A stretch of 32,000 nucleotides of DNA, taken from positions 262,791 to 294,790 of the forward strand of contig OOHK01000001.1 of assembly GCA_900315845.1 (NCBI GenBank). Reading direction: 5' to 3'. The notes beneath the pieces are model-generated. The model was given only the letters and a program-made list of their open reading frames with translations, was not told where the DNA came from and made no database searches. Of the stretch, positions 3,045 to 25,025 are shown in pieces; within the stretch, counting starts at the first letter, position 1; each line of letters starts with the position of its first letter. The position numbers and the translations under genes are program-made. Source of the stretch: Candidatus Avelusimicrobium luingense (GTDB lineage Bacteria > Elusimicrobiota > Elusimicrobia > Elusimicrobiales > Elusimicrobiaceae).

Positions 3045-3829
3045 TGCATCCCACACTACTTACCATCGGTTCGTTTGAACTTGCCAGTTACGGCGTGATG
3101 ACTGCGCTAGGCTATGGGATAGCGTCGTATTATCTGGTACGGCGGCTGCCTAAAAATTTGGACAAAGATACTTTTTGGAATTTAATTTTTATTTTATTTA
3201 TGGGGGCACTCGTCGGGGCAAAATTATTATTTATTGCGTTGACGTGGCCGCAGTTAAACGGAAGCACTTGGGAAAAAATCTCGTATTTCGTGCAAAATTT
3301 TCGGTATGGGTTTGTGTTTTACGGTGGACTTATCGTAGCGGTAGCCGCGGTAATTACTTACATGAAAAAGAAAAAATTACCGTTACTTGCTACATCCGAT
3401 TTTATTATTACCGCCTTACCGCTCGGACATGCATTCGGGCGCGTGGGCTGTTTCTTAGCGGGCTGTTGCCACGGCAAACCTACCACTATGCCTTGGGGAG
3501 TTACATTCACCGATCCGCACGCTATGGTTGCGCCCGATTTACTCGGTGTACCCGTACACCCCGTACAACTTTACGAAGCCGTCGGCAATTTGCTGATTTT
3601 CTTTATTCTGCATAAACTTTACAACCACCCGCATAAAAACGGCACCGTACTTTTAGCGTATATTTTTTGTTACGGTACGTTACGTTTTGCATTAGAATTT
3701 TTCCGCGGAGATTTTCGCGGAGCGTATTTATTCGGGCTTTCCCCGGCGCAGATTATTACCTTGTTACTTGCGTTAAGTGCCGGCGTAATTTGGTGGCGTA
3801 TTACTAAAAAAGGACAATCTCATGGCTGA
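3044..3829 (+). CDS. lgt: prolipoprotein diacylglyceryl transferase
   Basis: 261 aa polytopic protein with GRVGCFLAGCCHG and HPVQLYEA motifs typical of Lgt. The ATG overlaps the upstream stop by 1 nt (TAATG). Confidence 0.9.
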   Translation: MHPTLLTIGSFELASYGVMTALGYGIASYYLVRRLPKNLDKDTFWNLIFILFMGALVGAKLLFIALTWPQLNGSTWEKISYFVQNFRYGFVFYGGLIVAVAAVITYMKKKKLPLLATSDFIITALPLGHAFGRVGCFLAGCCHGKPTTMPWGVTFTDPHAMVAPDLLGVPVHPVQLYEAVGNLLIFFILHKLYNHPHKNGTVLLAYIFCYGTLRFALEFFRGDFRGAYLFGLSPAQIITLLLALSAGVIWWRITKKGQSHG

Positions 3830-5560: not shown

Positions 5561-5673
5561 ATTGTATATGATAACAAACTCTTTTCTCATGCACAAGATA
5601 AATAATGCTAAACAACGACTTATTTTAATATAGTAAAATATACTCCAACATCGTCGGGCCGAAAAGCCCACCC

Positions 5674-5701
5674 TTGACAAGTCAAAAAAAAAAACGATAA
5701 T
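5674..5701 (+). promoter_or_regulatory. sigma70-like promoter of pilin-like gene 1 with A11 tract in the spacer
   Basis: TTGACA (5674-5679), 16-nt spacer agtc-A11-c, GATAAT (5696-5701). AAGGAG SD at about 5722, ATG at 5735. Confidence 0.6.
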
Positions 5702-5734: not shown

Positions 5735-6289
5735 ATGGCAAATACAAAAGCATTTACGTTAATAGAATTATTAGTAGTCGTTTTAATCATTGGTATTTTA
5801 GCCGCCGTGGCCTTGCCGCAATACCAAAAAGCGGTGGAAAAATCACGCGCGGCTCAAGCATTAACCCTTCTTAAATCGGTTTCGCAAGCAGCCGAAGCGT
5901 ATTTTATGGCGAACGGAACGGAATTTAGGTCGTTTGACGAATTGTCGTTAGATATCCCATGGCCCGCGGGCACACGCGTTATCGGCGGCTCGCAAGATAC
6001 CAAATCAAACGGGGAATGGGCCTTAGAAATTGAAGATTCCAGTTCTTCCGGTTGGACGGTCCTGTTTATGACACGTTTGCAAGGCAAATATCAAGGTGCC
6101 GGTTTCCAAATCGGGATACGCGGGCCTGACGGGCATGTGGGCGGTTCCGTCCCCGGTTGTTTTGAACGGAAAACGGCCTCCACCAAAACTTTTGATTCTT
6201 CATTAACACCCGGAGCCTATTGCACACAAATTATGAAAGGAACCTTGTCTGATGAAAGCCAATGGGGACGCTCCTATCGTTTGCCCTAA
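5735..6289 (+). CDS. prepilin-type N-terminal cleavage/methylation domain protein (type IV pilin/pseudopilin-like), paralogue 1
   Basis: 184 aa. [42 protein letters not shown] is a class III signal peptide plus the conserved hydrophobic alpha1 helix (Glu at +5). The C-terminal part is paralogous to 24037..24606. Confidence 0.92.
   Translation: MANTKAFTLIELLVVVLIIGILAAVALPQYQKAVEKSRAAQALTLLKSVSQAAEAYFMANGTEFRSFDELSLDIPWPAGTRVIGGSQDTKSNGEWALEIEDSSSSGWTVLFMTRLQGKYQGAGFQIGIRGPDGHVGGSVPGCFERKTASTKTFDSSLTPGAYCTQIMKGTLSDESQWGRSYRLP
5750..5850 (+). repeat. dispersed ~100-bp conserved pilin 5' cassette, copy 1
   Basis: Roughly 80% DNA-level similarity, judged by eye, to 18021..18120 and 24481..24577 (both reverse orientation). 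Confidence 0.7.
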
Positions 6290-17650: not shown

Positions 17651-18148
17651 CTATAACGAACCCGTAGCCGATAATTGCTGACACAATTTGCGTTGGATAG
17701 CCGTAGCCGTTCCATTAGGATAGGCAGAGCAATCCACGCGATTTGGGGAGTTGGGCATCACAAAAATATAATACACATCCCCACTTCCATTTTGAGCGAC
17801 ATGTTGGGCAACTGCCAGTTGTGCTCCTCCGTCACCTGAAGGCGAATAAATAAAATATTTCGTTTGGATACGTTTGCCACCCAAGCTCGTAGTAAGAGAG
17901 CCGGGCACCTCTATATCCAATAATTCCATTTCATCTTGCGTAGCATATCGTCCGTTGGCCATATAAAAAGCCTGATTGGCGTTAGCAATCGTCCGCACCA
18001 TAGTAACCGCTTCCGTCATACGCGCTTTTTCCACCGCTTTTTGATATTGTGGTAAAGCCACCGCCGCTAAAATACCGATAATCAAAACTACTACCAATAA
18101 TTCTATTAACGTAAAACCGCCTAAACGGCCCGACATTTGTTTTTTCAT
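17651..18148 (-). CDS. prepilin-type N-terminal cleavage/methylation domain protein (pilin-like), paralogue 2
   Basis: 165 aa. [55 protein letters not shown]. Confidence 0.92.
18021..18120 (-). repeat. dispersed pilin 5' cassette, copy 2
   Basis: Shares long identical runs with copy 3 (for example gctaaaataccgataatcaaaac on the plus strand). Confidence 0.7.
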
Positions 18149-18188
18149 ACTTTTGCTCCTTATTTGTCAAAATATTCCGACAAACAAA

Positions 18189-18216
18189 ATCTTAACAAAA
18201 AAAAAAACGATGTCAA
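18189..18216 (-). promoter_or_regulatory. sigma70-like promoter of pilin-like gene 2 with T11 tract in the spacer
   Basis: Read on the minus strand: TTGACA (18216-18211), 16-nt spacer tcg-T11-gt, TAAGAT (18194-18189). Confidence 0.55.
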
Positions 18217-18243
18217 GTAAAACTTTTTCCGACGAAGAAATAC

Positions 18244-18273
18244 AAAAAAAGAACCCCCCGGATTAACCGGGGG
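18244..18273 (-). terminator. rho-independent terminator of the DUF948-like gene
   Basis: Minus strand: cccccgg-ttaat-ccggggg followed by ttcTTTTTTT. Confidence 0.8.
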
Positions 18274-18304
18274 CTCTGTTACAAGTAGTGAATAATTAGG
18301 TAAT

Positions 18305-18565
18305 TTATTTCTCTTTGTGGAAATGCCGAAATATCTCCATTCCCGTTTTAGCAACCTTAAATATTCCCGAATCTAAAAACGAGGACACATTGTCCAAAAG
18401 CACAAACGTGCTTTGCGTTTTATCCACTTTTTCCGCCGTGGAAATGGCCAAATACTCTACGGCTTGTGCCGTATGTAAAATTTGAATCAGCGTGCGAATC
18501 GCAAAAATGACGAGTACCACAAAAGCCACTACGGCCACGAGTACACAACCTTGGTATAAATCCAT
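18305..18565 (-). CDS. small N-terminally anchored membrane protein (DUF948-like)
   Basis: 86 aa. N-terminal TM VLVAVVAFVVLVIFAI followed by a helical segment. Strong SD AAGGGGGA. Confidence 0.65.
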   Translation of the reverse strand: MDLYQGCVLVAVVAFVVLVIFAIRTLIQILHTAQAVEYLAISTAEKVDKTQSTFVLLDNVSSFLDSGIFKVAKTGMEIFRHFHKEK

Positions 18566-23284: not shown

Positions 23285-24040
23285 ATGAAAAAATTATTTT
23301 TATCCCTTCTGCTGTTTCTTCCGTTAATCGCCTGGGCGGATGTATCACCCAAACCGGAAATGGAATTTTCGTTTATTTACAATACGCAAAATAAACCACT
23401 TATCGATCCGTTACTCAGTGAACAAATTCAATGTACGGATAACCAATGTTTAGAGAGCAAACCGCTGGGACATTATGGCTTGCAAAAATTATATTGCAAA
23501 GCAGGGAATTGTTTTTCAGTAGCGTACGAATATAGTGATTTCCAAAAATTAGTCATCGCATTTACCGACGGAACAAAACGGGAAAGTAATATCTTCCCCG
23601 CCGCGCACAAATTACGCGCACGTTATAACGTATATGTAGATAAAGATAAACTGACGGTAGAACCTTCCAATGTTACACCCGATTTAGGCGCTTGGGCCAG
23701 AGCCGATGCCTTATTCTCTTTATTTTTAGTTTTACTGTTAGAACTCATCGCCGCGGCGGCGTATTTGATGTACACGCAAAAAAGTTTTACGATTTTGTGG
23801 AGTGTAGCCGTAGCCAATGTAGTAACGATGGCAGTATCGTGGATATTGCTAGCGTGGTATGCGTCAGATACGGCGTTTTTATGGATATTTTATGTAGTAG
23901 CCGAAATGCTGATTATCCGGCTGATGAACATCCGCAAACTTGCCTTAAAAGATGCCTTTATGCTTGCCATCACCATGAACGTAACAAGTTATTCTATCGG
24001 TATGATTTTATCGTTCTGGCTGGCGGAACTGTTTTTTTAA
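23285..24040 (+). CDS. hypothetical membrane protein (signal peptide, ~130-aa 4-Cys exported domain, ~4 C-terminal TMs)
   Basis: 251 aa. [18 protein letters not shown] signal peptide, CTDNQC...CKAGNC, hydrophobic C-terminal half. AAGGA SD. No family recognised. Confidence 0.7.
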
Positions 24041-24606
24041 TACGGTAATAAATAGTAGCGCGCAGATCCCGAACTTCTATCATAGGGGGCTTGCATCACT
24101 TTTGTGCAATACGAACCTGCCGCCCCTGAAAAGACTATCCCGGCACTTGTTCTTTCGCCGCAGTAAAAAACATCTGTTTGTGTCGTTTGACCGTTGCCCA
24201 GCGTTTGGGAAGGGAGAATGAAAAACCCGGCTCCTTTATATTTCCCGCTAATTCGGCCCATCAAAAGATTTACGTTATCTTGCCCTTGATGCATTTGTAA
24301 TGACCAATCCCCATTCGAACGCACTTCCCCTGTAACATCGGAGGCCCATTTGGTTGTGCCTGTCCACGGCACATCAATATCCAATTCATCAAAAGAAGAA
24401 GCGAACGCGCCATTAGCCATTTTATAAGCCAACTGAGCCTGATACACACTTTTGAGCAAGGTAAGGGCTTGCGTGGCACGGCTCTTTTCCACCGCTTTTG
24501 TGTATTGCGGCAAGGCTACCGACGCTAAAATACCGATAATCAAAACAACCACTAACAATTCAATTAACGTAAAACCGTTTGCGGGATGAGAGAAATTATT
24601 TTTCAT
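24037..24606 (-). CDS. prepilin-type N-terminal cleavage/methylation domain protein (pilin-like), paralogue 3
   Basis: 189 aa. [54 protein letters not shown]. The C-terminal domain aligns with paralogue 1 (SFDEL.ID.PW...SNG.W...GKY.GAGF...YC). Confidence 0.92.
24481..24577 (-). repeat. dispersed pilin 5' cassette, copy 3
   Basis: See copies 1 and 2. Confidence 0.7.
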
Positions 24607-24678
24607 AGGGTTATTCCTTTTATATATTTAACAAAATGTAACACAGAAAGAATATTGATAAATGATACTAAATTTTTA

Positions 24679-24872: not shown

Positions 24873-24878
24873 TTCATA

Positions 24879-24965
24879 CGGAGAGGGAGAGATTCGAACT
24901 CTCGATACGGTTTCCCGTATGCAGTCTTTCCAGGACTGTGCCTTCAACCACTCGGCCACCTCTCC
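24879..24965 (-). tRNA. tRNA-Ser (anticodon GGA), 87 nt, long variable arm, CCA not encoded
   Basis: Manual fold: acceptor GGAGAGG/CCTCTCC, anticodon stem CAGTC/GACTG with loop CTGGAAA, variable arm ATACGG-GAAA-CCGTAT, T-arm GAGAG-TTCGAAT-CTCTC, discriminator G. Confidence 0.93.
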
Positions 24966-25025
24966 AAAATCGGAGTGATTAAAACTACCTTTTTATTATA
25001 GCAAATTATAACCGGCTTGAAAAAT

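Follow-up and report, generated by a model that had tools for sequence, protein, structure and literature searches.

Homopolymer tracts in the promoter spacers of type IV pilin-like genes of Elusimicrobiota: a candidate phase-variation system

Phase variation by promoter repeats is textbook knowledge for a few pathogens, from the genera Mycoplasma, Neisseria, Bordetella and Haemophilus. The poly-C tracts of Bordetella pertussis fim2/fim3 and the TA repeats of Haemophilus influenzae hifA/hifB alter the spacing of promoter elements, the porA promoter of Neisseria meningitidis carries a poly-G tract, and the ON state of the Mycoplasma hyorhinis vlp genes has about 17 A. This work concerns a similar element in Candidatus Avelusimicrobium luingense (Elusimicrobiota; Elusimicrobiaceae), whose genus comprises metagenome-assembled genomes (MAGs) from chicken gut (PMC8035907). 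The element lies in a 32,000-nt stretch of contig OOHK01000001.1 (assembly GCA_900315845.1, positions 262,791 to 294,790), termed here the window, in which the predicted promoter of a type IV pilin-like gene (gene 2) contains a run of 11 T (T11) between its -35 and -10 hexamers. The length of this run differs between strains, and similar promoters precede many pilin-like genes of related genomes. These data suggest, with a probability of about 0.65, that slippage alters the -35/-10 spacing and so switches or tunes the pilin genes independently of one another, in a Vlp-like manner.

By analogy of architecture, the Vlp system of M. hyorhinis is the closest one known. In the work of Citti & Wise (1995), as summarised in PMC10502178 and PMC2268961, poly(A) is located in the -35/-10 spacer of every vlp gene and its insertions and deletions switch transcription gene by gene. 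Both systems consist of a surface-protein multigene family, in which an A·T homopolymer lies in the -35/-10 spacer of every gene's individual promoter. However, vlp genes encode lipoproteins and form one clustered locus in a wall-less Mollicute, whereas the Elusimicrobiota genes encode type IV pilin-like proteins and are scattered singly, dozens per genome. The Elusimicrobiota tracts are also shorter (11–12 nt) and occur in both A and T polarity, and switching, which was demonstrated for Vlp, is here a prediction from sequence. A further feature that sets the Elusimicrobiota system apart from the known ones is a compensation between the length of the tract and that of its flanks.

The fim2/fim3 and hifA/hifB genes resemble the system described here in that pilus or fimbrial subunit genes, switched independently in those species, have a promoter repeat that alters spacing; yet those pili are of the chaperone-usher type, with two or three genes, and fim needs the BvgA activator, whereas here the pilins are of type IV and number dozens. 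With opc, nspA and porA of N. meningitidis there is in common a homopolymer upstream of, or within, the -10/-35 spacer of a surface-protein gene, but those are single genes, opc and porA with G·C tracts, and not a paralogous family. It was shown that a one-base change in the promoter tract of opc (poly-C) or nspA (poly-A) sets high, intermediate or no transcription, and that no switching is detectable for the short 5A/6A tract of nspA (PMC6389960); in contrast, the 11-nt Elusimicrobiota tracts vary between strains. The likely goal of varying the type IV pilin that is presented is shared with Neisseria gonorrhoeae pilE/pilS, where silent copies are transferred by gene conversion into one expression locus (PMC3547852), but the Elusimicrobiota paralogues are all complete and individually equipped with promoters. 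A cautionary example comes from Mycoplasma agalactiae, in which a T homopolymer is also placed directly upstream of the -10 of a surface-protein promoter; vpma switching proceeds by Xer1 inversion, and the T tract was found experimentally not to be the cause of phase variation (PMC2268961). The literature searched contained nothing that links Elusimicrobia to phase variation or to promoter homopolymers or repeats, and no report of phase variation by promoter repeats in a large family of type IV pilins from a gut commensal. The mechanism is familiar, while the Elusimicrobiota pilin system is large, clean and undescribed in the literature found.

The gene 2 promoter and the length of its tract

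The elements of the gene 2 promoter and its immediate surroundings are as follows.

18211-18216, minus strand: -35 hexamer TTGACA (6/6 match; sequence and consensus scan)
18208-18210, minus strand: start of the spacer, tcg
18197-18207, minus strand: T11 homopolymer within the spacer (A11 on the plus strand), the hypermutable element
18195-18196, minus strand: gt following T11
18189-18194, minus strand: -10 hexamer TAAGAT (4/6 match)
18156-18161, minus strand: Shine-Dalgarno sequence AAGGAG of gene 2, 7 nt 5' of the ATG at 18148
18229-18233, minus strand: GTCGG box, 17 nt 5' of the -35
18244-18273, minus strand: intrinsic terminator of the upstream DUF948 gene, a 7-bp GC stem (hairpin 18273-18255) with a T run

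An earlier note on this DNA had read the minus strand as TTGACA-tcg-T11-gt-TAAGAT with a 16-nt spacer, which matches the sequence exactly. The promoter scores 10/12 in the consensus scan and has the -35 and -10 hexamers and the 16–18 nt spacing of a sigma-70 housekeeping promoter; in addition, T(18197), G(18196) and t(18195) form a TGn extended -10. Transcription is predicted to begin some 7 nt past TAAGAT, near 18182. The simple-sequence tract is thus located between the predicted -35 and -10, and pure A·T homopolymer occupies 11 of the 16 spacer positions. The placement proposed in that note, behind the terminator of a DUF948-like gene and about 40 nt before the gene 2 start, also proved right, since the hairpin terminator sits 38 nt 5' of the promoter and 40 nt separate the end of the -10 from the ATG at 18148. 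The T11 tract was considered as a piece of the DUF948 terminator and this was excluded: the terminator consists of a separate hairpin with a T7 run, 38 nt upstream, and promoters of the same kind with A polarity, found in relatives, cannot be terminators. Rfam and tRNA scans gave no match at the gene 2 locus, and the only hit was a tRNA-Ser at 24878-24966.

Assemblies covering the gene 2 locus were gathered by look-ups with the exact protein sequences of pilin 2, DUF948 and TspO. Length polymorphism, which the earlier note had asked to look for, was found among seven independent assemblies of the same species, with T10 in four, T11 in two and T13 in one.

Window: T11
ERZ28614472: T10
ERZ922474: T10
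ERZ932404 (ERR2027898): T10
ERZ1029110: T10
ERZ28634091: T13
ERZ28612982: T11

Comparison of the window with contig L001 over 5,080 nt revealed zero mismatches and one gap, which is one base at the tract and thus the sole difference. In the alignment of nine contigs of the locus there are 42 single-nucleotide polymorphism (SNP) columns and four indel events; besides the tract these are a T6/T5 difference in one contig, an in-frame loss of 33 nt from one strain's pilin gene, and the divergent downstream part of contig L024. The other 7-8-nt runs are invariant in this 5.7-kb alignment, bar the T6/T5 in the single contig. Judged from these alignments, the length of the gene 2 tract is changing far faster than the surrounding sequence. 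The in-frame deletion belongs to ERZ922474 and shortens the gene 2 pilin from 165 to 154 aa.

Whole-unit length variation among close relatives was found at three further loci. At P0033 the tract is A10, A11, A12 and A12 in four assemblies and is the only indel in 1.29 kb; at P0031 five assemblies have T11 and one has T12; at P0071 the tract is A7, A8 or A9, and 10 aligned contigs (L005-L014; about 5.5 kb) with 138 SNP columns contain no other indel. P0071 is a paralogue in the window's species that lies outside the window, and its tract, about 40 nt 5' of the gene and directly before TGTAATAT, is shorter and has no recognisable -35; either the decay of a tract promoter or a tract promoter of another kind could account for it. 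At P0031, one of five assemblies (L110, 576-593) also has a 17-nt tandem duplication, attaaattccagtggag, in the 5' untranslated region (UTR), which doubles the Shine-Dalgarno region. Two contigs, L021 and L127, end inside the tract, and contig breaks at this site hint at heterogeneity within samples.

The tract promoter among relatives

The survey of relatives was based on 80 loci (1.14 Mb) of 28 Elusimicrobiaceae/Elusimicrobiales assemblies, obtained by a scan of a species-representative genome collection; all 28 are relatives, the window's own genome not being among them, and the window and loci together comprise 1.18 Mb. A tract promoter was defined as an A/T run of at least 9 nt with a -35 matching TTGACA at 5-6 of 6 positions 2-5 nt upstream and TAnnnT or GATAAT 0-2 nt downstream. 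Homopolymers in the 1.18 Mb number 100 at 8 nt, 9 at 9 nt, 7 at 10 nt, 63 at 11 nt, 35 at 12 nt, and 2 each at 13 and 14 nt, so that the distribution has a gap after 8 nt and then a sharp peak at 11-12. Tract promoters account for 98 of the 116 A/T runs of 9 nt or more. They are present in 18 of the 28 genomes, in at least 98 copies, as many as 25 of them in the part of one genome that was sampled, and two are in the window; there are many paralogues, each with its own tract promoter, as in the Vlp system. Judged from this survey, the design is a family-wide conserved promoter module in at least 18 genomes, well beyond the two paralogues for which it was first proposed.

The CTTGAC(A/T) -35 is kept in the 98 related promoters, which are of two types. 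The A type, common to 45 related promoters, has the consensus CTTGACAaatc-A11-cGATAATA. The T type reads either CTTGAC(A/T)-tcg-T11-g(c/a)-TAnnnT or CTTGAC(C/T)-(c/t)g-T12-g(a/g)-TAnnnT, and both of these forms yield a TGn extended -10. Spacer length is 16 nt in 74 of the 98 tract promoters, 15 in 12, 17 in five and another value in seven. The flanks and the tract compensate each other: a flank sum of 5 is paired with a tract of 11 in 55 of 69 cases, and a flank sum of 4 with a tract of 12 in 18 of 20 T-type cases. The conserved quantity thus appears to be the 16-nt spacer. Such compensation implies that spacer length is under selection, hence that spacing matters for function, and argues that the tract promoters are working promoters. 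Among strong promoters of the same DNA that lack a tract, the commonest spacer is 17 nt (19 promoters, vs 10 with 16 nt). Within single genomes spacer states are mixed; one, for instance, has 20 promoters at 16 nt, three at 15 and one each at 14 and 17.

The gene 2 orthologue of another species, 84% identical in amino acids, has the promoter TTGACT-ttg-T11-gc-TAGAAT, in which T11 is kept and the flanks differ. A metagenome scan with the left flank plus T9 brought no new gene 2 alleles, only nine paralogous promoters from other organisms; these nine JGI metagenome contigs share 15 nt through the -35, and all have T11 upstream of pilin-like genes.

The association with pilin genes is strict. For all 93 assessable tract promoters, the 700 nt that follow encode a pilin N-terminal motif on the same strand; the other five of the 98 run off the contig end. 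A run of at least 9 nt is located within 200 nt upstream of 91 of 158 pilin-like open reading frames (ORFs) and of 33 of the 894 remaining ORFs (with crude ORF calls; odds ratio 35, p 3e-59), and a tract lies within 500 nt upstream of 107 of 181 pilin-like genes (about 59%). The enrichment upstream of pilin-like genes that had been suggested for the window's genome was thus borne out in the genomes of its relatives. Seeming non-pilin ORFs after tract promoters were resolved as pilins with long or insert-bearing leaders, or as contig ends. Moreover, promoter and leader types are paired: genes behind an A-type promoter have a leader of 6 residues with Ala at -1, and those behind a T-type promoter have longer leaders, with Gly at -1.

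Several further features of these promoters and genes were recorded. The GTCGG box is present 17-21 nt 5' of the -35 in 12 of 97 tract promoters (3.8% expected by chance); it is enriched, but with 12 of 97 only it was rejected as a defining promoter part. GTCRG also follows just 3' of the -10 in 18 of 45 A-type promoters. GTCGG may be a regulator site or simply a piece of the duplicated module. In many T-type promoters the core ATCG-T11-GAT adjoins the -35; inverted, it overlaps the -10 (cGATAAT) of the A type, and the likeness may be a coincidence or reflect a common origin by inversion. Many related pilin genes have inserts of 100-350 nt between the tract promoter and the FTLIELL motif (e.g., L033 3425, L037 8800, L051 16612, L079 9829, L084 9604, L101 5221), which encode the recurring peptides RRHPELDSGSS, SPLAGEDARR and MLKQVQHD and look like small repeated elements in the 5' UTR/leader region. 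In another lineage (L062, Elusimicrobiota MAG JAIRMX01) a C13 run at 3234-3246 is located about 25 nt 5' of the KGFTLIELL codons with no obvious start codon in between, and may represent a different, poly-C-based pilin switch. Contig L086 (CAVHDF010000010.1), labelled Eggerthellaceae, encodes an Elusimicrobiaceae-type pilin with 48% identity to gene 2 and is probably mis-binned.

The pilin-like genes of the window

The window contains three pilin-like genes, listed here with their promoters and the gene that precedes gene 2.

17651-18148, minus strand: pilin-like gene 2, 165 aa (PF07963, TIGR02532 and PDB matches)
5735-6289, plus strand: pilin-like gene 1, 184 aa, 6-residue leader with Ala at -1 (PF07963, TIGR02532)
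24037-24606, minus strand: pilin-like gene 3, 189 aa, lacking an upstream homopolymer (PF07963, TIGR02532)
18305-18565, minus strand: DUF948-like gene, 86 aa, upstream of gene 2 (PF06103, E 2.3e-5, below the Pfam cutoff)
5674-5701, plus strand: gene 1 promoter, A type, TTGACA (5674-5679)-agtc-A11 (5684-5694)-c-GATAAT (5696-5701), 16-nt spacer
24635-24661, minus strand: gene 3 promoter TTATCA-atattctttctgtgt-TACATT, with a T-rich, interrupted spacer

All three ORFs pass the prepilin N-terminal models PF07963 and TIGR02532; for gene 2 the scores are 27.3 bits (cutoff 21.2) and 27.4 (cutoff 16.3), respectively. The gene 2 protein has an 11-residue leader ending in G, followed by FTLIELL with Glu at position 5, and thus the elements of a prepilin peptidase site: a short basic leader, G/A, F-x-x-x-E and a hydrophobic helix. 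Cys140 and Cys156 are located near its C-terminus. The PDB matches to type IV pilins are limited to the N-terminal helix (residues 12-70 in gene 2). From the domain models and the structural match of that helix, the product is predicted to be type IV pilin-like and to form a surface structure. All equivalog models for specific pilin subfamilies (PilA/PilE, GspG, ComGC etc.) score far under their cutoffs, and domain scans of the window detected no prepilin peptidase or assembly machinery within the 32 kb. Homologues of gene 2 number more than 7,000 at E ≤1e-10, and those that are named come from Elusimicrobiaceae. The pilin genes of the window are solitary, amid housekeeping genes (enolase, lgt, FeFe-hydrogenase, nrdD, biotin carboxylase, luxS, ValRS).

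What the earlier note said of the likeness between genes 1 and 2 holds in each part: they share the -35 TTGACA, the 16-nt spacer and an 11-nt tract, A11 and T11, respectively, and their Shine-Dalgarno contexts (AAGGAGCAAAAATATG in gene 1, AAGGAGCAAAAGTATG in gene 2) are one base different. Both obey the pairing of promoter type with leader type. GTCGG is also found at 5653-5657 (plus strand), 21 nt 5' of the gene 1 -35, and both tracts read A11-CGAT on the plus strand (5684-5698; 18193-18211). The third paralogue lacks a tract, as had been stated: its spacer is T-rich but interrupted. The gene 3 promoter looks like a T type with an interrupted tract, which would fix tract length; such interrupted-tract promoters also occur at L029 and L042. 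Upstream of gene 3 lies the tRNA-Ser (GGA; minus strand), separated from the gene 3 promoter by about 200 nt of GC-rich sequence, in which Rfam gave no match.

Apart from the two 11-nt tracts of genes 1 and 2, no homopolymer in the 32 kb exceeds 8 nt. The number of A11 runs by itself is ordinary when compared with dinucleotide-preserving shuffles (mean 1.09; two or more in 28 of 100 shuffles) and, not being significant, was dropped as evidence. The composites TTGACA-N4-T10 and TTGACA-N4-A10 occurred in none of 100 shuffles each. The cross-genome survey is taken as the decisive evidence against chance.

Proposed expression switching and its alternatives

How could such a tract act? In the proposed mechanism T11 would be a hypermutable tract that forms most of a sigma-70-type spacer (TTGACA-N16-TAAGAT, with TGn) and drives a solitary pilin-like gene. 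Replication slippage (slipped-strand mispairing) would add or remove T's; each such change would alter the distance and rotation between -35 and -10 and thereby promoter strength. As each pilin gene has its own A11, T11 or T12 tract, with dozens per genome, switching would be independent, and a population would comprise cells that express different pilin subsets; this diversity may be a form of bet-hedging in the face of host immunity, of pilus-specific phages or of shifting requirements for attachment. There is precedent in vlp, opc and nspA, which are switched by one-base changes of promoter homopolymers (PMC10502178, PMC2268961, PMC6389960). For the Elusimicrobiota promoters we infer an effect of tract length on transcription from the conservation of the 16-nt spacer through flank/tract compensation. 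The 16-nt state (T11), the family-wide mode, is probably the expressed one, because otherwise the sharp conservation of length would have no reason, while weak or no expression is probable for T10 (15 nt) and T13 (18 nt). If the 16-nt state is ON, genes 1 and 2 would both be ON in the window's genome, and gene 2 weak or OFF in the four T10 strains.

Several points weigh against switching by slippage. All length variants come from comparisons between assemblies and none from within a clone, and the homopolymer calls of short-read assemblies carry some error. The gene 1 tract is A11 in both assemblies available: look-ups with gene 1 and its upstream neighbour returned, besides the window, one other assembly only, also with A11. 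The peak of tract-free promoters at 17 nt, not 16, makes the ON length uncertain; the TGn extended -10 may lessen the dependence on -35 spacing, so tract length could modulate expression instead of turning it ON and OFF. Shared descent of the paralogues inflates the enrichment statistics. The vpma tract of M. agalactiae (PMC2268961) is a precedent for a promoter tract that does not switch, and the sharp 11/12 peak could equally fit a fixed structural requirement.

This last thought can be extended to an explanation of its own, in which a rigid, narrow-groove A·T spacer of 16 nt is needed by the promoter class or by a binding factor, and the length variants are incidental, mildly harmful slippage. 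The same vpma tract would be in keeping with it, as is the 16-nt spacer in 74 of 98 tract promoters, even though amino-acid identity between the pilin paralogues and gene 2 is no more than 40-60%, and a broader spread of lengths might be expected of a contingency locus. Yet a rigid element is difficult to reconcile with the existence of both A and T polarities, with the interrupted tracts of related, presumably working promoters (gene 3 of the window, L029 and L042), with the departure of about a quarter of tract promoters from the 16-nt mode in genome consensus sequences, and with T10, not T11, being the commonest allele at the gene 2 locus. It is regarded as rather unlikely. Whatever maintains the tract, a constraint on spacer length combined with an unstable tract length means that expression variants necessarily arise. 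That the length differences are mere errors of short-read metagenome assembly, and the tract without significance, is an explanation that homopolymers, being error-prone, and the several contigs ending at the tract would invite; it is effectively refuted by the agreement of four independent assemblies on T10 and of two on T11, by the stability of the other 7-8-nt runs in the 5.7-kb alignment apart from one T6/T5, and by about 100 copies of the tract in its promoter context in 18 of 28 genomes plus nine JGI contigs.

A different role, compatible with switching, would be that of a recombination junction, where promoter and tract provide a homologous left border for the exchange or insertion of pilin cassettes and the homopolymer is a by-product. 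In ERZ28612982 (L024) the same DUF948 gene, terminator, -35 and T11 are followed by gcTACATTttatttagtgatataaa, with a different -10 and UTR; the sequence after the tract resembles the promoter of another pilin family (L116), which points to an exchanged cassette that is joined at the tract. The whole terminator-promoter-pilin module is missing from L019 (Logan ERR5683766), which encodes an identical DUF948 protein and no pilin gene 2: between the DUF948 stop and the end of the TspO gene lies a 43-nt bidirectional terminator. When compared with window positions 17651-18300, this structure means that a module of about 650 nt is a presence/absence polymorphism. At the P0083 locus of Ca. Avelusimicrobium caledoniensis a deletion between T11 and a downstream T4 has removed the -10 (L115 vs L116: T7-atttaatg in the reference genome and T11-gcTACATTTT-atttaatg in another assembly), probably silencing the gene permanently. 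However, only a single swap and a single deletion were observed, contig L024 stops 25 nt beyond the tract, and a junction leaves unexplained both the pure 11-12-nt homopolymer and the flank/tract compensation to 16 nt. As an account of the tract it is improbable.

A bolder proposal can be made, tentatively and with the odds somewhat against it. Gut Elusimicrobiaceae might carry the largest contingency system of promoter simple sequence repeats (SSRs) yet seen, with dozens of solitary pilin genes per genome in portable terminator-promoter-pilin modules, whose A11, T11 and T12 tracts would be held by selection one slip away from another expression state; each cell would have a stochastic, combinatorial pilin repertoire, and modules would be gained, lost or swapped at the tract-bearing promoter. 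The compensating lengths of flanks and tracts offer a clean natural experiment on the constraints of promoter spacers. Should tract length set expression, annotators and binners would have to expect assembly breaks and differing homopolymer calls at the tracts. It would also explain why dozens of pilin paralogues are kept in bacteria with small genomes, and tract lengths in metagenomes of chickens, ruminants and horses would then be a record of the selection that host immunity or pilus-specific phages exert on the surface of these bacteria.

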